A stretch of DNA of 64,000 nt from Planctomycetota bacterium (GTDB lineage: Bacteria > Planctomycetota > B15-G4): assembly GCA_029259745.1 (NCBI GenBank), contig JAJDEO010000048.1, positions 111,024 through 175,023 on the forward strand, read 5' to 3'. The notes beneath the pieces were generated by a model, which worked only from the letters and a program-made list of their open reading frames with translations, was not told the origin of the DNA and did no database searches. Positions 54,274 to 64,000 of this stretch are shown here, one piece after another; the first letter of the stretch is position 1; each line of letters opens with the position of its first letter. Both the position numbers and the translations under genes were made by a program.

Positions 54274-55796
54274 TGAATGCCCGTCGAGTGATGGTGATCG
54301 CGAAGAAGGAGTTCAAGGACGTGCTGCGCGATCGGCGCACGCTCATCTTCATGGTGCTGCTCCCGCTTCTCGTCATGCCGGTGATGTTCCTGGGGATCGC
54401 GAAGTTTGCGCAGGAGCAGCAGTCCAAGAAGCAGTCGCGCACGTTGCGCGTTGCCGTCGACTCGAATGTCGAGCCGATGATCACGGCTCTCGCCGATCAA
54501 TGGATGGCTGAGAACTCGCCGCGGCTGATGATCACGAGTGCGAAGATCGGTCTGTCGTTTCCGGCTGCGGGCGGGGATCGCAAGGGGCTCGGCACGATGA
54601 TCGAGCAGGTCAGGGACATGATGGATGGCGGGGCTGACGCGGCCTCGCTTGCGGATCTCGATCCGGACCTCGTCGAGAGTGGCGTGCGTCTTGCGCGCGA
54701 GATCGATCCCGCGGACAAGGCGCTCTTCGATGACGCCAGCACGATCTCCACGTTCCGGACGAAGACCGAGTTCATCCTGATCGAGGACCTCGAACCAAGT
54801 GAGACACGCCTGCCGGCTGGGGTGGAGGTCCCCGACGATCTCCCCGAATCGTGGGACGGAGAGCAGCTTGCACGCGCGATCCAGGACAAGACGATCCACG
54901 CGGCGATCCACCTTCCGAGCAACGTTTTCGACATGCTCGAAGACCAACGCGCGAGTGTTCCTTTCAGCGTGTTCTACGACGAGAGCGTGAGTCTGTCGGA
55001 AGAAGCGTCCGACCGCCTCGCGGCGTTCGCGCGCATCGTCGGCAACGGCCTACTCGAGATGCGTCTGGCCGACAACGGACTCGCGCCGCAGTTCGCCGAG
55101 CCCATCGTGTTCGAAGGCGCGGACATGGCCACCCCCTCGCGGCGTGTCCAGGCGTTCCTCGGCGGCTTGCTGCCGTACATGATCATCATGTTCAGCTTCT
55201 TCGGTGCCTTCTACCCATCGCTCGACCTCACGGCCGGTGAGAAGGAGCGCTTCACGATGGAGACGCTGCTGCTCGCGCCCGTGTCGCGCATGGAACTGGC
55301 GGCCGGCAAGTTCGTCGTCGTCTTCGTCGCCGCCGTCGTCGCGGCGGTGCTCGCCACGACATCACTCGGTCTGACGTTCACGCAGGGCATCCTGCCCCAG
55401 GGTGTCGCCGCAGGCTTCGACATCCAGTTCGAGCCGGAGGCCGTCATGCTCACGGCCGTGCTCTTGATCCCGGTGTCGGCTCTGTTCGCGGCCGTGTTGC
55501 TGGGCGTCGCGCTCCTCGCGCGTTCGTTCAAGGAGGCACAGAGCTACACGGCGCCGCTGCAGTTCATCGTGATCCTGCCGGCCATGGCTGCGATGCTGCC
55601 CGACCTCGAAGCCGAGCTGCACCTGGCGTGGATCCCCTTCCTCAACGTCTCGATGCTGATGCGCGAGCTGTTGAAGGGCAACTATCTTTGGGACTTCTTC
55701 GGCATCACCATGCTCAGCATGGGGCTACTCACGCTGCTGACGATCTGGGGCGCGAGCCTGATCTTCCGGCGCGAGACGGTCATCCTGCGCACCTGA
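54270..55796 (+). CDS. ABC transporter permease (NatB-like)
   Basis: KEFKDVLRDRRTL, DLTAGEKERFTMETLL and ARSFKEAQSY motifs. Confidence 0.9.
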   Translation: MMNARRVMVIAKKEFKDVLRDRRTLIFMVLLPLLVMPVMFLGIAKFAQEQQSKKQSRTLRVAVDSNVEPMITALADQWMAENSPRLMITSAKIGLSFPAAGGDRKGLGTMIEQVRDMMDGGADAASLADLDPDLVESGVRLAREIDPADKALFDDASTISTFRTKTEFILIEDLEPSETRLPAGVEVPDDLPESWDGEQLARAIQDKTIHAAIHLPSNVFDMLEDQRASVPFSVFYDESVSLSEEASDRLAAFARIVGNGLLEMRLADNGLAPQFAEPIVFEGADMATPSRRVQAFLGGLLPYMIIMFSFFGAFYPSLDLTAGEKERFTMETLLLAPVSRMELAAGKFVVVFVAAVVAAVLATTSLGLTFTQGILPQGVAAGFDIQFEPEAVMLTAVLLIPVSALFAAVLLGVALLARSFKEAQSYTAPLQFIVILPAMAAMLPDLEAELHLAWIPFLNVSMLMRELLKGNYLWDFFGITMLSMGLLTLLTIWGASLIFRRETVILRT

Positions 55797-55908
55797 ACGC
55801 GACGCGACGCGGATCGAGCGGGCGTGTCAACGCACCGTCTCGATCCGCGCCGTGTCGTCGAGTCGACGACCCCATGCGTGGTGGTCGGCTGAGCGAACGC
55901 GTCGTCGA

Positions 55909-57018
55909 TTACTTTCCGGACGCGGCCTTTCCGGCCTTGTTCTGAGCGCGCACACGGTAGGCCTTGTGCGGGTTCGAGAAGCGGATCGCGCCGCGCTTCG
56001 TCGGTGCCAGTGAGTTGGGCACGTGCGGGACGACGACCGGCTGCGGCGCGGGCGCGTTGGCCTGCGCACGCGCGGCGCGCTTCTTGCTCATGGCCTTGGC
56101 GACGCGGTTCGGCTTGCCCGTCACCTGCGCGCGCTTCTCGAGCTTGGCGATGTGGTTGCGACGCAGCGCGTCGATCTCCCACGGGAGCATCTGAGCGAGG
56201 CGTTCGGCAGCACGTTCCTTGTACGTCACCGCGAGCGCATCTTCCTTCGCCGACTGGGCGTTGGACTGACGAGTCGCGAAGGCTTCGGCGAAGCGGTTGT
56301 TACGTCCGGTCTTCTCGGCTCGCTCGGCCTGGGCTGCGGCGAAGTTGCGCGCGTGGGCTTGGATCTCCCAGGGCTTCATCGCGGCGAGACGCTCAGCGGC
56401 GCGGTTGCGGTAGAACTCGCGCTCCTTGTCGCTCATCACCTTCGCGTCGTCGTTCACGCTGGCGACGCGCTTGTTGTTCGCAGCGTTGTTGTTGTTGTTC
56501 GCCTGCTGGTTCGCGGCAACACGGTTGCGTGTTTGCGCGAGCGCGACACGTCCGGCCTTGTTGACGAGGGACGGGTTGACGAGGGACGGGTTGACCAGAG
56601 ACTTGTTCGAAGGTTGGCGCGCGGCCTGGCGCATCGGCGAGACGACCATGGTTGACGACGGCGCTGACGACGGCGCAGCGACGCGCGTGGTCTCGCGCAC
56701 ACTCACGTTGGCGTTCTGGGGTGCGAGCGGAGCCCGCAGCGCGGGTGCACGCTGCGGTGGCGTCGCGGCGATCGGTCGCGGCGCTGCCTGACGAGGTGCA
56801 GCCTGACGAGGTGCAGCCTGCTGCACCTGCTTGCGGGCGTTCATGTTCTTGGCCGGCGCACGTCCCTTGGCGCGCGGCAAGGAGGTCGACGAGGTCGACG
56901 GCGAGGACGCGCGATTCGCGCTTCCGCGGTTCGCGCCGCCCTGGTTCTGGGCATTGGCGACGTCGGACATCGCGAGCACGGCCGCCAGGCTGGCTGCGAT
57001 GATGTGGGTAATGCGCAT
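55909..57018 (-). CDS. Secreted basic low-complexity protein with a duplicated ~50-aa module
   Basis: Signal peptide ending ANA; (QAAPR)3 and (SLVNP)-type repeats; two RAAERLAxMxPWEI modules. Confidence 0.75.
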   Translation of the reverse strand: MRITHIIAASLAAVLAMSDVANAQNQGGANRGSANRASSPSTSSTSLPRAKGRAPAKNMNARKQVQQAAPRQAAPRQAAPRPIAATPPQRAPALRAPLAPQNANVSVRETTRVAAPSSAPSSTMVVSPMRQAARQPSNKSLVNPSLVNPSLVNKAGRVALAQTRNRVAANQQANNNNNAANNKRVASVNDDAKVMSDKEREFYRNRAAERLAAMKPWEIQAHARNFAAAQAERAEKTGRNNRFAEAFATRQSNAQSAKEDALAVTYKERAAERLAQMLPWEIDALRRNHIAKLEKRAQVTGKPNRVAKAMSKKRAARAQANAPAPQPVVVPHVPNSLAPTKRGAIRFSNPHKAYRVRAQNKAGKAASGK

Positions 57019-57310
57019 GGGTTGATGACTCCGAGGGGGATGCATTTCTCTTCGGCACCCGCAAACGTGAACTTCACCCTCCTTCTCGGTGTGTTGCCCG
57101 ACTGACTCGTGCTGGGACACGGGTTGGCCTGGGCCGATGGCTGGCCTGGCAACCTGGCCGGCCTGCGCACGGGAAGTCCCTGGCCGGGTCGCGCGCGGAC
57201 ACGGGCGGACACGGTGCGTGTCTCGATCTGTCCAGGTCTTGCTCTCCGCGTCGGTCGCCCGCCGGTCCCGCTTGCGGCGAGAGCGTGAGCTGCACGGCTT
57301 GTGTGTCGCT

Positions 57311-57350
57311 GGATTGCCGGGTTGCTGGGTGAGCGGATTGCTGGGTTGCT
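57311..57350 (+). repeat. Five degenerate 8-bp tandem repeats upstream of the sulfatase gene
   Basis: GGATTGCC GGGTTGCT GGGTGAGC GGATTGCT GGGTTGCT. Confidence 0.6.
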
Positions 57351-57361
57351 AAGCTCCGGCG

Positions 57362-58774
57362 ATGACGCGTTTCGACCCCGTTCTTCGGCTTGTCTTCGCG
57401 GCACTCCTGGTGGTCTTGGTGGGCTGTGCCTCGGAGGAGTCGCGTGTGCCGAGCGCGCGCCCCGACGTCGTGCTCGTCGTCGTCGACACGCTGCGCGCCG
57501 ATCGCACCGGGCTCCTCACGCCGGGCCTGATGCCCGAGATGGCGGCTTTGGCCGAGCGCGGTGTCGCCTACAGCACGGCCGTCGCCCCGTCGTCCTGGAC
57601 CCTGCCGTCGATCGCGGCGCTTTTTTCCGGGCGTGAGATCACGGCCCGCCGCACGAGTGCGTATCACGACCCGACTCTGGCCGAGCGCTTCGCCGAGGCC
57701 GGGTACCGCACGGTCGGTCTCGTCGCCAACCCGCTCCTCACGGACGACAACGGCTTCTCGCGCGGCTTCGACGAGTTCGACGTTGCCCCTGCGACGACGA
57801 CTTCGAAGCGTCTCGCCGATGCCTCGATGCTTCCCGAGCTTCGTCGCTGGGACGCCGCGGCGCTCGTCTCGCGCGCCGTCCGCGTGCTCGACGACGCCTC
57901 GCGCGCACAGCCCGTCTTTCTCTATGTGCATCTCATGGACCCGCACCTCCCCTACGACCCCGCGCATGTCCCGCGCGCCGAGGCAATCGAAGGCTGGTCG
58001 ACGTCCGAGCTCCCGGTCGTCTGGCGCGACGAGCCGCTCGCGGGCACGGAGGCGAAGATCGCCGGGACGCTCCGGCGCGCCTACGACGGACAGGTCGCGT
58101 TCGTCGACGAGGCGCTCGGGCGCTTGGGGCGCATGGTCGTCGACGGGCGGCCGCTGCCGCGCAACGGTGACACGCCGCCCGCGCGACGCCCCTGGCTCAT
58201 GGCCGTCACGTCCGACCACGGCGAGGGACTCTTCTCGCATCGCCGCAACCCCGACAGCCCTTCAAGCGGCGAGGTGCTCGACGAGGCCTACCTCGAACAC
58301 GGCGAGCAGGTTTATGAAGAGGCGGTCCGCGTGCCGCTGTGGCTGCTCGGCGCCGGTGTCCCCGCACAGCGGCGCGAGACACGTCCCGTCGCCATGACGA
58401 CGCTCGGCGCGACCCTTGCGCACCTCGCTGCCCTCGACGAGCTCCCGCCCGGCGGGGTCCTCCCGCTCGCATCGACCGACCCCGCGCCGGCTACGATCTT
58501 CGGCACCGGCACGCGCGACTGGTTCGCACGCACACCGGACGCCAAGTACATCGCCCCGTTCGAGGAGCGTCTCACGCACCCGGACGTCGACAACCGCCTC
58601 CTCGAGGTCGCCTCCGAGCGCTACCTCCCCGAGATCGAGTCCCGCCCCCACGCTTCGGGCGACGCGAACCTCCCCTCCAGCTTTCTCATCTGGCGCGCGG
58701 CGAACATCACTCCCAGCGACGTCACGGACCCGGCCACGTACGAACGCCTCAAGCGCCTCGGCTACCTGAAGTGA
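57362..58774 (+). CDS. Sulfatase/alkaline-phosphatase superfamily lipoprotein
   Basis: VDTLRAD, SWTLPS, HLMDPHLPY, TSDHGE and LKRLGYL motifs; LVGC lipobox. Confidence 0.88.
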   Translation: MTRFDPVLRLVFAALLVVLVGCASEESRVPSARPDVVLVVVDTLRADRTGLLTPGLMPEMAALAERGVAYSTAVAPSSWTLPSIAALFSGREITARRTSAYHDPTLAERFAEAGYRTVGLVANPLLTDDNGFSRGFDEFDVAPATTTSKRLADASMLPELRRWDAAALVSRAVRVLDDASRAQPVFLYVHLMDPHLPYDPAHVPRAEAIEGWSTSELPVVWRDEPLAGTEAKIAGTLRRAYDGQVAFVDEALGRLGRMVVDGRPLPRNGDTPPARRPWLMAVTSDHGEGLFSHRRNPDSPSSGEVLDEAYLEHGEQVYEEAVRVPLWLLGAGVPAQRRETRPVAMTTLGATLAHLAALDELPPGGVLPLASTDPAPATIFGTGTRDWFARTPDAKYIAPFEERLTHPDVDNRLLEVASERYLPEIESRPHASGDANLPSSFLIWRAANITPSDVTDPATYERLKRLGYLK

Positions 58775-58826
58775 GCCGCCCTCTTGCGACGCCCCATGGC
58801 GATGCGGATACTTGGCCGTCTCGGCT

Positions 58827-58902
58827 GGGCGAATGGCGCAGTTGGTAGCGCATCTGGATCACAACCAGAGGGTCGGGGGTTCGAGTCCCTCTTCGCCCAC
58901 CA
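58827..58902 (+). tRNA. tRNA-Val (anticodon CAC)
   Basis: Full cloverleaf: GGGCGAA/TTCGCCC acceptor stem, GCGC D-stem, TCTGG-ATCACAA-CCAGA anticodon arm, TTCGAGT T-loop, encoded CCA. Confidence 0.95.
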
Positions 58903-59051
58903 TCAATATCGCCAGAGAATCGGCGATTCGCAGGCAAAGCGGCATCTGAGCGTGCAAGGTCACCCACTCTCAGAAGTGTGTCAATGACACACCTCCAGCC
59001 ATGCGAATGCCGAAGCTGTGCCTACATCGGGCCAGCGGGCGCGAGTCTGTC

Positions 59052-59110
59052 TCACTCCTGCCACGCCCGCCAATCTCGAAGAGCCGCTTCACGTGCTCGG
59101 GGTCCGCCAT
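59052..59110 (-). pseudogene. N-terminal stub of a second pentapeptide-repeat gene
   Basis: RBS GGAGG then ATG; MADPEHVKRL resembles MPNPEHVAML of the upstream gene; similarity ends within about 20 codons. Confidence 0.55.
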
Positions 59111-59185
59111 GGTTCCTCCCTCTCGCATGGATGTCGTCCTCTTCTCGAAGCAGCAGATCCAAAGCTGAGCGTTGCGTGGCGAGCG

Positions 59186-60499
59186 CTACGCGTTCTCCCT
59201 CGTCCCCACCGCCCCATAGTTGTCGCGCAGCCCGCGGTAGAGCTTCGTGAACGCTGCCTCGAACTTCGTCTCGTTCTCCCACTCGGAGAAGTCGAGCACG
59301 TTGTAGCTCTCGATCTGGCGGCGTAGTGGGCCGGGCCAGTCGCATTCCTTCCACGCATCGTCGAGCGCGACCGGGCATAGCACTGGTCTGCCGATCTTCT
59401 TCTCGAGCTTACGTGCTTGGCCGGCCTCCCACTCGACCCATTCGCTTTCCAGCGACCTCTCTGATAGCAAGCTCACGACGACCGGATTGATCGTGTTGAA
59501 CACGTGGTCGATCTGGCGGTCAACTTTGCCGGCATTAAGATCGTGAACGTCGAACCACGTGCGCATGTGTTTTTCGTCGAACGCTGCCTTCAGACGCTTC
59601 GCCAAGGCGCCATCAACGTCGTCGTGCTTGTACGAGATGAACACCGGGTGAAGCTGCAACGGATCGTGGAAGCGTAGATCGTACACGCGATACTGGATCT
59701 CGGTGATCTCCTCCGGCGAAAGCGATGCATCGTACATCCGCACAGCTAAGGTCTCCCAAGGCGTAAGACCTGCTCCTTCGAGGAAGGTGTCCGAGAGCTG
59801 GCCACGTGATCTTGCCAGAGCGCTTGTAGATAGTGAGCTTGGGCCACGGTACTGGACATCGTTTAGGTCGACTTGCGAGAGATCCACATCGTCGAAGTAG
59901 GCTCCGCCGAGGGTCGCGGCGGTCATGTCGGTGTTCCGAAGGATCGTTGCCCGGAAGACCGTAGCGCTTAGGTTCGCATGTCGTAGTTTTGCATTACTTA
60001 GGTCCGCGCGACTAAGGTTGGCACGATTGAGATTCGCGCGGACGAGCCTCGCACCGTTCAGTTTCGCACTGTCCAGGTTCGCACCGGTGAGGTTGGCTTC
60101 GACCAGTACCGCATGAAGCAAGTCGGCGTTGCTCAGGTCAGCATCTACCAGCTCCGCACCACTGAAGTCCGAATAGCTCAGGCTCGAATCGGTTAGATCC
60201 GCGTTGATTAGGTAAGAGCTGTTTAGGTCCGCACTGTCAAGATCCGCACGGCGCAGATCAGCGCCGCTTAGGTCGGCACCGCTAAGGTCAGCGCTGTCCA
60301 AGTTCGCACTGCTTAGGTCAGCGTGGCTCAGAACAGCCTCGTCTAGCTTCGCACTGTGTAAATCCGCGCCTTCTAGAGCTACGCCGCCTAGATTTGCTCC
60401 GCTCAGGTCAATGCGCTCACCTCCGAAGCGGAAGAGTGCCCACAGGTCTCCCTTCCCGCGGGTCTTCTTGAGCATCGCAACGTGCTCGGGGTTCGGCAT
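59186..60499 (-). CDS. Pentapeptide-repeat protein with a C-terminal TIR domain
   Basis: About 36 A(D/N)Lxx repeats; TIR motifs VFISY, WFD, LLSERSLESEWVEWE and LCPVALD; GAGGGAG RBS. Confidence 0.93.
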   Translation of the reverse strand: MPNPEHVAMLKKTRGKGDLWALFRFGGERIDLSGANLGGVALEGADLHSAKLDEAVLSHADLSSANLDSADLSGADLSGADLRRADLDSADLNSSYLINADLTDSSLSYSDFSGAELVDADLSNADLLHAVLVEANLTGANLDSAKLNGARLVRANLNRANLSRADLSNAKLRHANLSATVFRATILRNTDMTAATLGGAYFDDVDLSQVDLNDVQYRGPSSLSTSALARSRGQLSDTFLEGAGLTPWETLAVRMYDASLSPEEITEIQYRVYDLRFHDPLQLHPVFISYKHDDVDGALAKRLKAAFDEKHMRTWFDVHDLNAGKVDRQIDHVFNTINPVVVSLLSERSLESEWVEWEAGQARKLEKKIGRPVLCPVALDDAWKECDWPGPLRRQIESYNVLDFSEWENETKFEAAFTKLYRGLRDNYGAVGTRENA

Positions 60500-60716
60500 G
60501 CTTCTCCCTCGATCGATCGTCCGACCCTTTTTCGGACTGTGCATCAGGCGTGACACACTTCTACACACTTTGCCCTCGAACCGCCCGGATTCGCCCGGAT
60601 ACCACGCACCGGTTCGCACTGCGCTGCCCCCCCCGTGGTACTGTCCGTAGGCACGTCTTCGACGCCGATTTCGTCGCAACGGGCTGATTCCTCGCCGATC
60701 CTCGCCGTGACCCGAT

Positions 60717-60766
60717 TCTGGATCACAACCAGAGGGTCGGGGGGGCGAGCCCCTCTTCGCCCACCA
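60717..60766 (+). repeat. att-site duplicate of the tRNA-Val 3' half
   Basis: 47/50 identity with 58853-58902; all three mismatches are in the T-loop. Confidence 0.92.
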
Positions 60767-60885
60767 CTTCGAGACCCGCCGGCCAACCCGCGCGGATGAG
60801 CGGCGCGGATGAGCGGCCCTCGGGCGCCGCGCCGACGGGGAGCGTGCGCTGAAGTAACGGCGCCGACGTCGTCTCCCGCTCCCGC

Positions 60886-60990
60886 TCACTTGGGGACCGT
60901 CTGTGGGGCATTGCTCTCCCCCCAACCCTGCGTCGCTCCGACGACGTTCATCCAGACGTGCGCGAAGAAATCGGCACCGCCCGCTTCTCC
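60886..60990 (-). pseudogene. Degenerate copy of the C-terminal domain of the neighbouring secreted protein
   Basis: Reads GADFFAHVWMNVVGATQGWGESNAPQTVPK* versus GFDLFTQVWMNDAGAEQGLAGSNALRTLLE*. Confidence 0.65.
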
Positions 60991-61150
60991 CAGAGCGTGG
61001 GTCTGTAAAGCGCTGACTCACGCGAGCCATTGCGCGGCTCGACGCTCGCGATCGTGTGGGTCAAAGTGCGCCAACCCCGCCACGGTGAGCCGTCAGGTCA
61101 CACCGGTGCGGGGTTGGTCGTCCAGGTCGCGCGCGCCGAGGCGCGGACGT

Positions 61151-62191
61151 TCACTCCAGCAGCGTGCGCAGTGCGTTGCTGCCCGCCAGCCCCTGCTCGG
61201 CGCCGGCGTCGTTCATCCAGACCTGTGTGAAGAGGTCGAAGCCGGACAGCGCGGCCGGGAGCGCCGGGATCGTCGTCGAGGCCTCGCCGAGCGTGTCCGT
61301 CTGCAGCGAGACGACGGCGTCGACCGAGGGAACGAAGGTGCCGCCGAAGTACGGCAGGCTCACGTTCTCGAGCCCGAGGAAGAGCAGCGCCGACTCGGAC
61401 GGCAGGGCGCCGAGGAGCGCGAGCTCACCGCCACCGCTGCTTGCCGACGGGGTGCCCGAGCCCACGAGCAGGAGGTCACCCGCCGTGCCGGCGACTCCCC
61501 CACCAAGCGACTCGAACGCAAGCGTCTCGACCATGACGCGGCCCAGGCCGGTGATGGACTGGTGAGCGTCGAGCGGAACACCGTTGGGTGCCGCTTCGTC
61601 GGTCCCGATGCTGGCACCGACGAGCGCCTGCTCCACGTCGAGGATGATCTGATCGAACACGTCGTCGGCGAACATGGTCGTGGAGTTGAAGCCGCGGATG
61701 CGCACCGGGCCGGGAATCGTCCCGCCTCCCGGCGGCGGCTCAGGCAGCTTGCCCTGCAGCTTGAAGCAGAGGTCGACTTCGTTACCGACGCCGAGCGGTA
61801 CTTCGACCGGTGCGACGAACGAGTACCAGTTGCCGGACAGCGTCACGTCCCAGGCTTGGTCCCCGGCGGCCGTGTTGTCGAACGATCCGAAGCCGGGGAC
61901 CGGAATGTCCGTCCCCGGGAACGTCACGCGCGCACTGATGATCTCGCAGAGCTTGGTGCCCGTCGGCAGGTTGAAGGCGCACGAGCAGAACTGGCCCGGT
62001 GACCCGCCGAAGAGCGTGTAGCCCTTCACGTAGATGTCGACGGTGTACATGTCGTCGGTGATCTCCAGCGAGCCCTTGTCGAGACAGACGCCCGGCGACG
62101 TGACGGGCGGCGGCTGGACGCAGGCATCACTGACTGAAACGAATGCTGCGATGGCAACGGCTGTTGCTTGAATCCATCGTGAGTGCTGCAT
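61151..62191 (-). CDS. Secreted Cys-rich hypothetical protein with a conserved C-terminal domain
   Basis: Signal peptide ending SDA; six Cys in the N-terminal domain; C-terminus QVWMNDAGA..GLAGSNAL. Confidence 0.8.
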   Translation of the reverse strand: MQHSRWIQATAVAIAAFVSVSDACVQPPPVTSPGVCLDKGSLEITDDMYTVDIYVKGYTLFGGSPGQFCSCAFNLPTGTKLCEIISARVTFPGTDIPVPGFGSFDNTAAGDQAWDVTLSGNWYSFVAPVEVPLGVGNEVDLCFKLQGKLPEPPPGGGTIPGPVRIRGFNSTTMFADDVFDQIILDVEQALVGASIGTDEAAPNGVPLDAHQSITGLGRVMVETLAFESLGGGVAGTAGDLLLVGSGTPSASSGGGELALLGALPSESALLFLGLENVSLPYFGGTFVPSVDAVVSLQTDTLGEASTTIPALPAALSGFDLFTQVWMNDAGAEQGLAGSNALRTLLE

Positions 62192-62598
62192 GATTTCGGG
62201 TTCCTTCGACAAGTGTCGTGAGTGAGTCGGTTCGCGCGAAGGTCGAGTGACCCTCGCGGCGTGTGGCGCGCGTCGAATGCACGCGTCTCCTACTCACACT
62301 TGATGAGCTGCGGTCCGCTTCTCTGATCGACTCTCGACAAATGCGCGTGGCGCGCTCGTCGTGCCATCGTCGCTCGGCTGGAGTGCCGCGCGCCTCGACG
62401 CAAGTGCATGCGTGACACGTGCACGCCGCGCCATGCGTTCTCGGATCAGGCCGCGTCGCGGTCACGCCCTCAGCGCACTGGAGCGTCGGAGAGCACGCGC
62501 GAGCGGTGCAAGGGATGCAAGGACATCGAGCGTCGTAGGCGCTCTTCGCCGAAGACGTGGCGTCGAGCGCACGGCGCCCGCGCAAGTCCCCGGCGCGG

Positions 62599-62991
62599 TC
62601 AGCCGTCCTTCAGAAGCTCGGCCTTCGCCGCCTCGAGTTCGGACGCCAGCTCATCGAGCTGCGCGCGTAGCTCAGCGCGTTCCTTGCGCAACTCGCTGAC
62701 CTCGGGGTCGACGTTGTCGTCGTCGTGCGCGTGGTCATGATGGGCGTCGCCGTCATCCTCGGCATGGGCCTCTGCTTCGGGTCGGGCCGATGATCGCAAG
62801 GCGATCGTGGTCCGCTCGATCTCTGCGAGGGCCTGCGCGCGAGCTTCGAGAGCTTCGAGGCGGGCGACCTCCGCGCGGGTGTTCAGCATGTCGACGACGA
62901 AGGCACCGGCGGCCAGGACCGCGATGAAGAGCACGCCGATGAAGACGAAAAGTCCGATGCCGCTGTCATCGTCGGAGCGCTTGCTTGCCAT
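62599..62991 (-). CDS. Membrane-anchored coiled-coil protein with a His/Asp-rich linker
   Basis: One TM helix; HAEDDGDAHHDHAHDD; C-terminal heptad pattern. Confidence 0.7.
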   Translation of the reverse strand: MASKRSDDDSGIGLFVFIGVLFIAVLAAGAFVVDMLNTRAEVARLEALEARAQALAEIERTTIALRSSARPEAEAHAEDDGDAHHDHAHDDDNVDPEVSELRKERAELRAQLDELASELEAAKAELLKDG

Positions 62992-63447
62992 CGGTCGCGT
63001 CTCATGGAGAAGCTCGTGAGCGCGCCATTCTAACAGTCTGTTCACAGGCGATTCACAATGGCGCGTACGCACGGGGATTCCTGCACCGCGAGGTCTTCGC
63101 TGCCGTCTTCTTGGATGAGGGAGGTCAGCCTCCGAGTCTCATCCGGAATCGATCTCATGCAGTCCCACGCCAACATCACGACCGCGCTGTTTTCACGCAG
63201 CAGTCTGCGTCGTGCGACGAGCCCCGAGGGCCTTCGCACGGCTCTGTTCGTCGCCTTGCTCGCCGCGGCAGTCGTCACGGCCTGATGGCCCGCGCGACCT
63301 GACGGTCCGAGCCATCGTCCTTCCGCGCGAGGCCGCGCCAACGGAGTCGTTCGCACCGTTGTGAAACGCCGACAGCGCGACTTCGACCGCGCTTCGCCGC
63401 TGACGACTTACCCGTGCCGCTGGCGGTCGGCGCGCAGCGGCCTCACG

Positions 63448-64000
63448 TCACTCGATCGTGACGTCGAACCCATCGCTGAGAGCGCCGAGTCCGTTCGGCG
63501 CGCCGCTGTCCACGACGAGCCATTGGCTCACGATGTGGATGCCGACGATCGACGGCTTGTTGGGCAGCGGGAAGGCGAACTCCGTCGTGCCGCTCGCGTC
63601 GGCGCTCGAAGGAAAGAGACTCAGCATTGTGCCGAGGTCGACGTGCAGCGTCGTGTCGGGAAGCTGCGGGGCGAGGTCGACGCCCGGGATGAGCGCACCT
63701 GTCCCGAGGATCAGGAACGTTGGTGCGCCGGGCAGGACATTGACGCCGCGCAGGACGAAGTCGCTGCTCCCGATCGCGGGCGTGCCGCCGATCGTCGCGC
63801 GTGGTTCGAGTGCGTAGGTTCCCGGGGACGAAACGCCGAACGGCGTGCCGCTGCAGCCGGCGAAGAGCCAGTCGGAGAACACCGGATAGTGGTCCGAGGC
63901 CGTGAAGCTCGTGGTCCCGTCCAGGGGCGAGCCGCTCTTGTGGAGGACGAGCCCGATCGGCCCGCCGTCGAGGCCGTCGTCGTCCTCCGAGGAGTAGATC
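63448..64000 (-). CDS. Partial gene (3' end): endonuclease/exonuclease/phosphatase-family protein with a conserved C-terminal domain
   Basis: The frame stays open to the window edge and contains ASDHYPVFSD (the EEP SDHxPV motif), followed by a GGTPAIG...QWLVVDSGAPNG..ALSDG domain. Confidence 0.72.
   Translation of the reverse strand, partial: IYSSEDDDGLDGGPIGLVLHKSGSPLDGTTSFTASDHYPVFSDWLFAGCSGTPFGVSSPGTYALEPRATIGGTPAIGSSDFVLRGVNVLPGAPTFLILGTGALIPGVDLAPQLPDTTLHVDLGTMLSLFPSSADASGTTEFAFPLPNKPSIVGIHIVSQWLVVDSGAPNGLGALSDGFDVTIE

Follow-up and report, generated by a model that had tools for sequence, protein, structure and literature searches.

A pentapeptide-repeat/TIR gene in a small islet at tRNA-Val of a Planctomycetota bacterium: a candidate single-gene immune NADase

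Introduction

TIR NADases are central to the immunity of bacteria, plants and animals, and the mode in which infection is sensed is the open part of their biology. A locus of a Planctomycetota bacterium raises this question in a small format: an islet bordered by a tRNA-Val gene carries one intact gene, which joins pentapeptide repeats to a TIR domain. How did this gene reach the chromosome, what became of the element that brought it, and what would its product do? These points are addressed here within a window of 64,000 nucleotides (assembly GCA_029259745.1, contig JAJDEO010000048.1, positions 111,024 to 175,023), whose numbering is used throughout (Table 1). A preliminary description, made from the letters of the window alone, had taken the locus for a decayed, integrase-less island around a one-gene anti-phage cassette.

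Table 1. Features of the islet at tRNA-Val, in window coordinates
Feature	Position	Strand	Basis and remarks
tRNA-Val(CAC)	58827..58902	+	ARAGORN; left (attL-side) islet border
Direct repeat, left copy, 50 nt	58853..58902	+	Repeat search; anticodon stem to 3' CCA end of tRNA
Tyrosine integrase, putative 5' stub, ~19 codons from ATG	59001..59057	+	tblastn and HMM; tRNA-adjacent family of this bacterial order
Second pentapeptide-family gene, 5' stub (RBS, ATG, ~17 codons)	59060..59110	-	Repeat D3, translation
Pentapeptide repeats-linker-TIR gene, 437 aa + stop	59186..60499	-	ORF, Pfam, model
TIR domain, residues 286-419	59243..59644	-	Pfam TIR_2
Linker, helical, residues 214-285	59645..59860	-	Alignments A1 and A3; predicted homodimer interface
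Pentapeptide repeats, residues 29-213, 37 units	59861..60415	-	PF00805; predicted right-handed beta-solenoid, ~9 coils
Upstream non-coding stretch, 217 nt	60500..60716	-	GGGAG before start codon
Direct repeat, distal (attR-side) copy	60717..60766	+	47/50 vs tRNA 3' 50 nt; right islet border

An acquired islet at tRNA-Val(CAC)

The repeat of the last 50 nt of the tRNA 1.86 kb downstream, on which the idea of an islet had been founded, was recovered by a repeat search at 94% identity (47/50), with the two copies spaced 1864 nt from start to start. All three mismatches lie in the T-arm and T-loop of the distal copy, which is left with a degenerate T-loop. According to ARAGORN, the tRNA gene is the single Val-CAC gene among the 54 tRNAs of the genome, and a blastn-short search of the 5.88 Mb genome found no partial copy of it longer than 24 nt other than the distal repeat. 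The composition also departs from that of the host, as the preliminary description had noted in the AT-richer codons: the GC content is 59.6% in the islet and 58.6% in the gene versus 67.2% in the genome, GC3 of the gene is 70% versus 87% and 86% in two flanking genes, and just 0.96% of the 8,841 genome windows of the same size (1,314 nt) reach a GC content as low as that of the gene. To the right of the distal repeat, GC climbs to ~70%. Part of the lower GC may stem from the amino-acid make-up of the repeats.

The proposed comparison of the tRNA-Val locus among relatives supported an acquired islet. The distance from tRNA-Val to tRNA-Leu is 6.5 kb here versus 327 bp and 363 bp in two relatives (G002 and G009), and the spacers of relatives carry proteases, FG-GAP proteins and other ordinary genes of native GC, with no repeat of the tRNA found in them. 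Among the relatives compared, G004 alone, a member of the same family, has an integrase in this spacer; the gene is intact and follows tRNA-Val at a distance of 116 nt. Contigs from four sequencing runs of two studies were compared with positions 57300-62300. The whole region is spanned, with zero differences, by one contig from the run that is probably the source, and the three further runs gave only short exact pieces, from both flanks and from the islet. No contig joining 58902 to 60767 was found among the four runs; the comparison indicates neither excision nor an empty site, and contigs cannot prove absence.

The horizontal acquisition of the islet is thus supported by traits that characterize tRNA-integrated genomic islands: it lies between a tRNA gene and a direct copy of that tRNA's 3' end, its composition deviates from that of the genome, and it was not found in relatives. 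It differs from such islands in measuring just 1.86 kb and in having an integrase reduced to a putative stub. Jointly with the functional reading developed below, we narrowly favor the explanation that 58903-60766 is the remnant of an integrative element, inserted by a tyrosine integrase into the 3' end of tRNA-Val(CAC).

Two stubs and one probable deletion

The islet had been described as lacking an integrase, which is true solely for an intact gene, because a putative 5' stub was found ~100 nt past the end of the tRNA gene, in the orientation also seen in G004. With the tRNA-Val-side integrase of G004 as query, tblastn aligned 24 residues, 12 of them identical (E 0.013 in 8 kb), and an HMM of ten integrase N-termini placed the stub frame at the top (E 0.011) of the 124,877 peptides from a six-frame translation of the genome. 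The HMM region was picked after the tblastn match was known and E values of 0.011-0.013 are marginal alone; the case draws its strength from position. Of ten integrases of this family whose 5' ends are complete, nine are found immediately after a tRNA. The resemblance ends where the conserved G-K-D-x-Y-L-G block is due.

The second stub was revealed by a repeat (D3) between 59066-59115 and 60455-60504, of 70% identity, whose DNA alignment spans the ribosome-binding site and the start codon, and its peptide agrees with the N-terminal consensus of the pentapeptide-TIR family. A second pentapeptide gene was thus formerly present in tandem, downstream of the intact one. Because the two stubs abut, the integrase and the remaining cargo were probably lost in a single internal deletion, and the decay looks like one such event because the first ~19 integrase codons persist. 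The junction would lie near 59058-59065, and the deletion would have taken the integrase from about codon 20 on, any intervening cargo and the second gene beyond its first ~17 codons, leaving one intact gene. The earlier picture of an island decayed around its gene therefore stands insofar as the rest is reduced to stubs, with its decay amended to one probable deletion, and the 437-aa frame was confirmed as the sole intact ORF of the islet.

Architecture of the intact gene

The start codon was placed at 60499, where the family N-terminus aligns and which GGGAG precedes; a 614-aa ORF listed at this locus was rejected as the gene, being an in-frame upstream extension across the repeat. A consensus scan of 58700-61100 found no promoter or terminator, and the organism may use other signals. 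The architecture of repeats, linker and TIR domain given at first was upheld, and its count of about 36 repeats became 37 in register (PF00805, 153.1 bits versus a cut-off of 20.2, 1.2e-45). The AlphaFold2 model has a pLDDT of 88.8 as a whole and of 90-99 over the repeats. Foldseek with the whole model returned pentapeptide solenoids only (HetL, Np275/276, QnrB1, MfpA), and the repeat part matched Qnr, MfpA and AlbG with E values of 1e-7 to 3e-6. The net charge of residues 1-213 is -13, in a range of -25 to +7 across the family. The linker is conserved across the family; this segment, in which the family motif F-L-R-G-C-G reads F-L-E-G-A-G, had zero matches in the PDB by sequence or by Foldseek.

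The TIR domain was recognized by Pfam (TIR_2, PF13676; 54.6 bits versus a cut-off of 28, 1.9e-14). It keeps the SEWVEWE motif, as had been noticed, whose final glutamate, Glu358 (codon 59426-59428), is shared by all 64 family members in the alignment. A search of the PDB with the TIR sequence by itself gave weak matches at most (best E 0.097), and a family profile was required; its best sequence-profile match was AbTIR (7uwg/8g83; about 1e-13, 3.4e-13), with the S-x-W-x-x-x-E block aligned, and TIR-STING 6wt6 followed at 8.5e-12. In the profile search, Glu358 aligns with the glutamate of AbTIR, TIR-STING and Cat1, the established catalytic residue of TIR NADases. Because the whole model had retrieved solenoids alone, the C-terminal half was modelled separately (pLDDT 88.3), and it matched SPARTA, SARM1, RPP1, TIR-SAVED and AbTir with a Foldseek probability of 1.00, as expected of a flavodoxin-like TIR fold. 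The closest solved TIR fold was that of SPARTA (8qlo_A, E 9e-6, rmsd 2.7 Å over 151 columns of 437), to which no part of the protein but the TIR domain aligns.

A homodimer in which two chains join tail to tail through the linker is predicted, with a score of 0.59 versus 0.02 for the best control and an interface at residues 201-277. Of 30 proteins solved as pairs, 20 reached the mark applied, as did 1 of 23 solved as single chains; at least 68% of contacts recur between runs, with a partner pLDDT of at least 82. Solved dimers of Qnr and MfpA exist, and for this reason the pass may mirror likeness to these proteins.

Proposed function

We lean, if not strongly, towards the reading that the pentapeptide-TIR protein acts as a self-contained, single-gene NADase of abortive infection, or as one directed against mobile elements. 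The cytoplasmic protein would consist of a capped pentapeptide beta-solenoid, a helical linker that pairs two chains and the TIR domain. The repeat rod would offer a sensing or regulatory surface to a phage-derived trigger, upon whose binding the TIR domains would form an oligomer able to cleave NAD+, leading to growth arrest or death of the infected cell. What the sequences show are the anatomy of the gene, its foreign origin, its accessory status and the traits of its family; cleavage of NAD+, the nature of the trigger, the part played by the repeats and phage protection are inferred. The DNA-mimic decoy that the preliminary description placed at the sensing step would be one conceivable form of such recognition, against which stand the missed cut-offs of the Qnr and MfpA models and the net charge of the repeat part, which varies from -25 to +7 in the family. 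The repeats need not be the sensor, because one family member (P0209, pentapeptide-TIR-SAVED) also bears a SAVED sensor.

The family and the state of the window copy

The genome has one copy of the gene, and no match covering the TIR domain was found in 30 related genomes; that the gene is accessory is therefore supported, and the expectation that it would not be core in relatives was borne out. The family comprises at least 3066 representative clusters (50% identity) at E<=1e-30, in Chloroflexota, Acidobacteriota, Planctomycetota and other phyla. Tandem arrays occur in 8 of 68 loci, and within tandem pairs identity is 67% over linker and TIR domain and 46% over the repeats, with the C-terminal part diverging less in 13 of 17 pairs. 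Fusions to SAVED, ParA or DUF4062 occur in some members, and the GC content of homologues is below that of their flanks in 52 of 71 loci.

In a comparison of 64 sequences, for which the set had been selected by conserved motifs, the window protein departs from the family at 13 of the 49 columns with a conservation of 85% or more, which exceeds the count of any other sequence (median 3). Among these changes, Cys243, near-invariant in the family linker, is replaced by Ala, and Arg241 by Glu. This copy could be decaying, with the reservation that the choice of the comparison set favors conserved members, and a rather unlikely alternative to the preferred reading is that it is now a functionless passenger in this genome, still intact since too little time has passed for a disabling mutation. 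The loss of the remainder of the element and the lack of a consensus promoter in the scan are compatible with this explanation, as are the three changes in 50 nt of the distal repeat, which suggest long residence. However, the 437-codon frame is still open amid stubs, all 13 columns invariant in alignment A3 are kept, including Glu358, the model is confident and the ribosome-binding site is intact.

Genomic neighborhoods of homologues

Four viral contigs carry the family amid replication, immunity-region and structural genes, with one copy directly after a Rosmer RmrT/RmrA pair and another between primase and terminase. Most homologues are chromosomal, found among housekeeping genes and with no phage genes within 5 kb. 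Neighbors were annotated by PADLOC for the first 300 and by Pfam for the first 150 of 558 ORFs, covering loci L030-L072 of L030-L109. Strong PADLOC neighbors within 5 kb were found in 6 of 39 genome loci (L034, L048, L054, L057, L058 and L060), mostly at near-full-length matches; this raw count has no control set and is for that reason not an enrichment figure. Domain-level PADLOC matches to PD-T4-6 (Ser/Thr kinases), mad3 (ABC ATPases), mad2 (methyltransferases) and SspA/DndA (cysteine desulfurase) were set aside. At single loci, the homologue adjoins an integrase (L038), a gene that joins pentapeptide repeats to an Mrr-type nuclease (L040) and one that joins them to an ion channel (L042). 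The 80 loci yielded no conserved partner gene, the largest non-self neighbor cluster consisting of generic ABC ATPases (8 of 80). In the window itself, the 12 ORFs neighboring the gene gave no PADLOC match beyond one weak methyltransferase-level match. An association of the family with tRNAs was rejected, as a tRNA lies no more than 4 kb away in 7 of 80 loci, close to the ~0.09 that a rough estimate of chance gives, and a tRNA-derived repeat was found at none of the six tRNA-near homologues checked.

Several marks of conflict and immunity are thus supported for the family, namely the viral contigs, some defense neighbors, tandem arrays with diverged repeats, SAVED and ParA fusions, and nuclease and channel neighbors, and it is probably an immune family. 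The same viral copies, the arrival of the gene on an integrative element and the predicted rod-shaped acidic dimer, similar to those of Qnr and MfpA, could also suggest that the gene serves a mobile element, by superinfection exclusion, as an addiction toxin, or in counter-defense, where a DNA-mimic rod would block restriction and the TIR domain would alter NAD-derived immune signals. Prophage-borne defense genes are common, and for this reason a viral location does not separate such service from host-type defense. We consider service to the element quite unlikely, given that most homologues reside on chromosomes, with phage genes lacking in the 5 kb around them, and that retention of the gene after loss of the element argues for host benefit or neutrality.

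Comparison with known systems

The gene did not prove to be a known defense system as far as PADLOC v2.0.0 is concerned: no model covers the protein, and the 7 matches are all to TIR parts (residues 283-394). Our search of the literature found no paper naming a two-domain pentapeptide-TIR protein as a defense system, and comparative-genomics supplements, outside its scope, may list the architecture.

Among these matches, the best was SAVED_TIR (7.8e-15), and the fold matches 7qqk, which relates the TIR domain to the TIR-SAVED proteins of CBASS and type III CRISPR. In TIR-SAVED and TIR-STING the NADase is turned on by oligomerization, and the same logic would be expected of the preferred NADase reading. 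Unlike these proteins, the window protein lacks a SAVED or STING sensor and a nearby cyclase gene, the place of the nucleotide sensor being taken by the pentapeptide solenoid and the predicted dimerizing linker. Nor does it fall among CBASS or Pycsar effectors, as Pfam finds pentapeptide and TIR domains only and the islet offers no neighbor gene. SPARTA TIR-APAZ provides the closest solved TIR fold, but the window protein has neither an APAZ domain nor a short Argonaute (pAgo) partner. AbTir, the best sequence-profile match of the family, has an N-terminal coiled-coil; the window protein differs from it in genomic setting and family, and bears a pentapeptide solenoid at its N-terminus.

A resemblance to Thoeris ThsB, a TIR protein thought to sense phage, was seen in the tandem diverged paralogues at some loci of the family. 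Thoeris loci with multiple thsB occur, and these tandem TIR paralogues recall them. The window protein could accordingly be a signal-producing TIR, which would sense infection and act on a separately encoded effector through a signal of the cyclic ADP-ribose type, with no NAD+ depletion of its own, in line with the weak matches to ThsB models (PADLOC 1.3e-4; Pfam ThsB_TIR 17.4 bits) and with the closeness to AbTIR, which makes cADPR isomers. This appears improbable, however: the ThsB_TIR score is below the cut-off of 21.2, that of Thoeris type III ThcB4 is 24.4 versus 220, no neighbor is conserved in the 80 loci, and the islet has neither a ThsA partner nor any second intact gene.

The combination of a repeat superstructure and a killing effector is shared with the bNACHT/Avs STAND proteins, and two reports count pentapeptide repeats among those that serve bacterial NACHT proteins as C-terminal sensors (10.1101/2022.07.19.500537; 10.64898/2026.10.19.760177). 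In contrast to STAND/NLR-like proteins, the window protein has 437 aa and the reversed order, with N-terminal repeats and a C-terminal TIR domain, and no NACHT or AAA+ NTPase was found in it by Pfam, NCBIfam or PADLOC. A further parallel is offered by Hailong HalA, in that the channel-pentapeptide gene adjoins a pentapeptide-TIR gene at one locus (L042). A review describes the cytoplasmic crown of HalA as gated by oligo-dA (PMC13434031). This ligand-binding crown may correspond to its pentapeptide part. Unlike Hailong, the window encodes neither a channel domain nor a nucleotidyltransferase of the HalB type.

With Qnr, MfpA and AlbG the protein shares a right-handed quadrilateral beta-solenoid of similar length and acidic character, and a tail-to-tail dimer formed by C-terminal helices is predicted for it; it differs from them in its TIR domain and in that no link to topoisomerases was seen. 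A non-immune cellular role, such as a Qnr/MfpA-like binder of topoisomerase or another DNA enzyme coupled to NAD+ turnover or signaling, would agree with these structural matches and with the housekeeping neighbors of many homologues, but it is very improbable, as the equivalog models were widely missed (Qnr 60.8 bits versus 240; MfpA 55.9 versus 360) and a housekeeping role does not suit a family that is accessory and patchily distributed, diversifies in tandem, occurs on viral contigs and has its killing-type effector domain swapped.

Implications

Beyond the preferred reading of a single-gene NADase, a broader proposal can be made for the family, which we put forward as a rather unlikely speculation. 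Pentapeptide rods would form an unrecognized class of NTPase-free, single-chain immune sensors, either as DNA-like, tail-to-tail dimers of the Qnr/MfpA type that bait phage DNA-binding or DNA-processing proteins, or gated by oligonucleotides as in Hailong. Their killing domains would be swappable (TIR, Mrr-type nuclease, ion channel), and their repeats would diversify in tandem like receptor repertoires.

The islet plainly illustrates a defense-type gene outliving its vehicle, with the putative integrase stub and that of the second gene meeting at the scar of one probable deletion. The family would pair TIR with a type of sensor lacking any known trigger, in a small, easily cloned protein. If the repeats are the sensor, it would provide a compact model for repeat recognition with no NTPase switch, and would allow testing whether DNA-mimic rods serve as immune bait.

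Structure and origin of the islet

The preliminary description had placed an islet of atypical composition between tRNA-Val and a downstream repeat of its 3' end, and this was borne out, since 47/50 positions of the repeat match and the islet has a GC content of 59.6% versus 67.2% for the genome. The three mismatches of the distal copy lie in the T-arm/T-loop, each T being replaced by G or C. This tRNA is the single Val-CAC gene among the 54 tRNAs of the whole 5.88 Mb genome, in which blastn-short detected no further partial copy of it longer than 24 nt. The GC profile runs at ~0.70 on either flank and at 0.56–0.59 within the islet. The intact gene itself has 58.6% GC, a value this low being found in 0.96% of 8,841 gene-length windows genome-wide, and its GC3 is 70%, versus 87% and 86% in the flanking sulfatase and 353-aa genes, respectively. 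Low-GC windows (1.3 kb, GC ≤60%) are concentrated on contigs C28 (47), C24 (28) and C3 (20), which could represent plasmids, prophages or sizeable islands.

Features of the tRNA-Val islet (positions within the window)
Feature	Position	Strand	Evidence
tRNA-Val(CAC)	58827-58902	+	ARAGORN; sole tRNA within 55000-64000
Direct repeat, left copy (last 50 nt of the tRNA)	58853-58902	+	repeat search
Direct repeat, distal copy	60717-60766	+	1864 nt downstream of left copy
Integrase stub	59001-59057	+	~19 residues like a tyrosine integrase N-terminus
Second-gene stub	59110->59060	-	RBS, start codon and first ~17 codons like the intact gene's
Intact gene	60499->59186	-	437-aa product

The 283 nt separating the tRNA from the stop codon of the gene are occupied by two stubs. 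The second-gene stub is a repeat (D3) with 70% identity over 50 nt to the 5' end of the intact gene, with which the DNA alignment agrees, and its peptide matches the N-terminal consensus of the family. Because it copies both the translation signals and the first codons and also fits this consensus, a second family gene therefore formerly stood in tandem here. The integrase stub shares 12/24 residues (tblastn over 8 kb, E 0.013) with the integrase that, in the relative G004, starts 116 nt past the corresponding tRNA-Val(CAC). Across the order, 42 genomes yielded 13 loci of this integrase family (which comprises G004 L026:1807-3123 and loci L110-L122). Of the members with a complete 5' end, 9/10 directly follow a tRNA (Val-CAC 1, Val-GAC 2, Pro 4, Gly 2), and they have in common an N-terminal motif that is useful for detecting integrase stubs. 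With a 24-column HMM of 10 integrase N-termini, built with the window left out and on a region picked after the tblastn match was known, the window's frame ranked first among 124,877 six-frame genome peptides (E 0.011; runner-up 0.047). These E-values are marginal taken alone; the case carries weight because the best genome match falls ~100 nt past this tRNA, on the right strand and at the N-terminus of the query. The similarity stops where the next conserved block of the family is due, and the two stubs abut at ~59058-59065. A single deletion taking away the body of the integrase, whatever other cargo there was and the greater part of the second gene would explain this layout. The islet is a decayed tRNA island, a known kind of element, and probably an integrative element cut down by this deletion, whose scar is unusually clear.

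The locus in related genomes

The gene, present in one copy in its own genome, is accessory: a search of 30 relatives' genomes, 15 of them from the same family, matched the repeat part alone (within query residues 1-247) and never the TIR domain. Gene order from the sulfatase through tRNA-Val and tRNA-Leu(CAA) to the dapB block is conserved, with a spacer between the two tRNAs of 327 bp in G002, 363 bp in G009, 1.8-4.1 kb in three other relatives and 6.5 kb here; the tRNA-derived repeat was found at 0/9 relatives' loci.

Several other genes were observed in these regions. The 4.6 kb from the islet to tRNA-Leu(CAA) (60767 to position 176456 of C43; L029:2791-7457) has native GC, and nothing equivalent was seen at the loci of 10 relatives. 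A 353-aa protein (61151-62212, minus strand) has a hydrophobic N-terminal stretch and may be secreted; its C-terminal region is like that of a 513-aa protein with an endonuclease/exonuclease/phosphatase domain (L029:5475-7013), a 157-aa protein lying in between. On the other side of the tRNA, a 403-aa ORF (55912-57120, minus strand) combines an N-terminal hydrophobic stretch with short-repeat runs (QAAPR, NPSLV), and no Pfam family was found for it. In the relative G001, the variable stretch downstream of tRNA-Val encodes a 1006-aa TPR-CHAT (caspase-like) protein (L022:5196-8213). The sole other query match in the own genome is a 701-aa open frame of pentapeptide repeats without TIR (L002, L003; G000:C1:3017-4708).

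The pentapeptide-TIR protein

ATG 60499 was taken as the start because GGGAG precedes it and the nearly invariant Met1 and N-terminal consensus of the family align there; a 614-aa ORF was rejected as a real gene, being an in-frame upstream extension that crosses the repeat. Pfam recognizes Pentapeptide (1.2e-45) and TIR_2 (1.9e-14; 54.6 bits versus a cut-off of 28; residues 286-419), with 37 pentapeptide units at residues 29-213. As regards the anti-phage role proposed beforehand, PADLOC recovered the TIR domain and nothing outside it, all matches being partial and the best one SAVED_TIR (7.8e-15, residues 284-366). Among NCBIfam models, HetL, Qnr, MfpA and Thoeris-III ThcB4 were matched, all far under their cut-offs. 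The family profile matches AbTIR (3.4e-13), TIR-STING (8.5e-12) and Cat1 (1.9e-11), and Glu358, invariant in the family alignment, aligns with the Glu of these three proteins, the known position of the catalytic residue in NADase TIRs. This is a foreign, accessory gene kept intact, whose TIR domain retains the catalytic-position Glu. At conserved columns the protein deviates at 13/49, the most of 64 sequences (median 3), a contrast exaggerated by the selection of this comparison set by those same motifs; its linker motif has Ala at the near-invariant Cys243 and Glu for Arg241. To judge from the alignment, decay of the gene in this genome is possible.

In the full-length AlphaFold2 model (pLDDT 88.8, pTM 0.79), a two-helix cap at the N-terminus precedes a regular beta-solenoid, which a helical linker connects to an alpha/beta domain. 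Foldseek related the whole model to designed solenoids, HetL, Np275/276, QnrB1, MfpA and AlbG, and the C-terminal half, modelled separately (pLDDT 88.3), to SPARTA TIR-APAZ (8qlo_A; E 9e-6, rmsd 2.7 A over 151 columns) and to the TIR domains of SARM1, RPP1, TIR-SAVED and AbTir; it gave no structural match for the linker. Homodimer prediction scored 0.59 (best of 3 controls, 0.02), a mark reached by 20/30 proteins solved as pairs and by 1/23 solved as single chains, with at least 68% of contacts in common among runs and a partner pLDDT of at least 82. The predicted interface is symmetric and formed by residues 201-277, the last coil and the linker. Since Qnr, MfpA and AlbG have been solved as tail-to-tail dimers, this pass may reflect likeness to them.

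Family size, architectures and genomic surroundings

A word-indexed search returned at least 5870 matches at E<=1e-3 among 8000 candidates scored; among the matches listed, 119/119 non-self proteins carry pentapeptide and TIR_2 domains (35-48% identity). The full HMM search with a linker-TIR profile gave 3066 representatives (50% identity) at E<=1e-30 and 26,526 at 1e-10. In a set limited to a single genome for each species, 138 stretches selected by pattern were confirmed and 76 loci retained, mostly from Chloroflexota, Acidobacteriota and Planctomycetota MAGs, besides 4 more on IMG/VR viral contigs. The linker is conserved across the family, its F, L, G, G pattern being invariant. Architecture was scanned in 34 representatives picked for odd length, comprising one pentapeptide-TIR-SAVED, one ParA-pentapeptide-TIR, one DUF4062-pentapeptide-TIR, one double unit, four giants in which six or seven TIR domains are combined with WD40 repeats, and seven of the shorter proteins (237-343 aa) with TIR only at the threshold used, the remainder being plain pentapeptide-TIR. 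The giants (P0131, P0134, P0138, P0210; 1426-2208 aa) show a TIR row followed by WD40 propellers and have high linker-TIR profile scores.

Clustering of 850 crude ORFs lying no more than 6 kb from the gene revealed no conserved partner gene across 80 loci, the biggest non-self cluster being generic ABC ATPases (8 loci). Tandem paralogues are frequent (four in L034; three each in L039, L053 and L091), with at least two motif-complete copies at 8/68 loci. Tandem copies vary in repeat length and share a mean identity of 67% in the linker-TIR and 46% in the repeat part, the C-part being more conserved in 13/17 pairs, which are non-independent (6 from one locus). The family couples diversifying repeats to a constant effector, with no partner gene and occasional immune-type fusions. 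Killing-type domains are also interchangeable on the same kind of repeat module: beside pentapeptide-TIR genes, similar repeats are joined to an Mrr-type restriction-endonuclease domain (L040:12990-14147, minus strand) and to an ion-channel domain (L042:514-1704, plus strand), the latter recalling the pentapeptide and channel architecture of the Hailong effector, and L047 holds two pentapeptide genes with an unassigned C-terminal part. One paper terms a Hailong-like effector a pentapeptide-plus-channel protein.

Neighbours were annotated on crude ORF calls, PADLOC covering 300/558 ORFs and Pfam 150/558. At 6/39 genome loci scanned, PADLOC made strong and mostly near-full-length matches among the genes within 5 kb: PDC-M19A/B (L048), PDC-S08 with type III restriction-modification (L054), PDC-S01 (L057), a methyl-directed restriction enzyme (L058), PDC-S05, ~half of the model matched, with a dGTPase (L060), and L034. 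The last offers the family's clearest case of a defence island, its four genes (L034:8938-13625) being flanked by PDC-S02 and a type I methyltransferase (PADLOC), DUF429 and a NACHT protein (Pfam). Enrichment near defence genes is suggested by this uncontrolled count. An integrase adjoins the family gene in L038, and the remaining scanned loci have ordinary-looking surroundings; the window's own 12 neighbouring ORFs gave no defence match beyond one weak methyltransferase-level PADLOC match. On viral contigs, the family gene lies between primase-polymerase and terminase genes (L031), near a tape-measure gene (L033), after an ORC/CDC6-like gene (L030) and after a Rosmer RmrT/RmrA pair (L032; RmrA 1e-142). 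Homologue GC is below that of the flanks in 52/71 loci (median -2.8 points), to which the amino-acid composition of the repeats may contribute.

Possible mode of action

NADase TIRs need higher-order assembly, as in SARM1, plant TIRs, TIR-SAVED, TIR-STING and SPARTA. The protein at rest would probably be a tail-to-tail dimer whose repeat rod would bind a phage-derived trigger, leaving the TIR domains free to form a higher-order assembly that would consume NAD+ and abort the infection. The repeats need not be the sensor, since a pentapeptide-TIR-SAVED member exists. Alternatively, the protein might be gated by an oligonucleotide, as a review describes for Hailong HalA (PMC13434031). The DNA-mimic decoy first proposed would be one form of the trigger-binding mechanism, and an improbable one: the Qnr/MfpA-like shape, predicted dimer and net charge of -13 would fit it, but the Qnr and MfpA models were missed and charge spans -25 to +7 over 115 family members.

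Earlier papers mention pentapeptide repeats, described as forming superstructures or as sensors, in conflict systems and in STAND/NACHT proteins (PMC7159879; PMC8195603; 10.1101/2022.07.19.500537; 10.64898/2026.10.19.760177), and another paper mentions fusions of Orc/Cdc6 immunity proteins to such repeats or to TIR (PMC10853773); a search of full-text literature, supplements aside, turned up no account of a defence protein made up of a pentapeptide and a TIR domain. The large, unnamed family of this gene most plausibly represents a variant of TIR-based single-protein immunity, no surprise in kind, and the gene is a good and cheap experimental lead.
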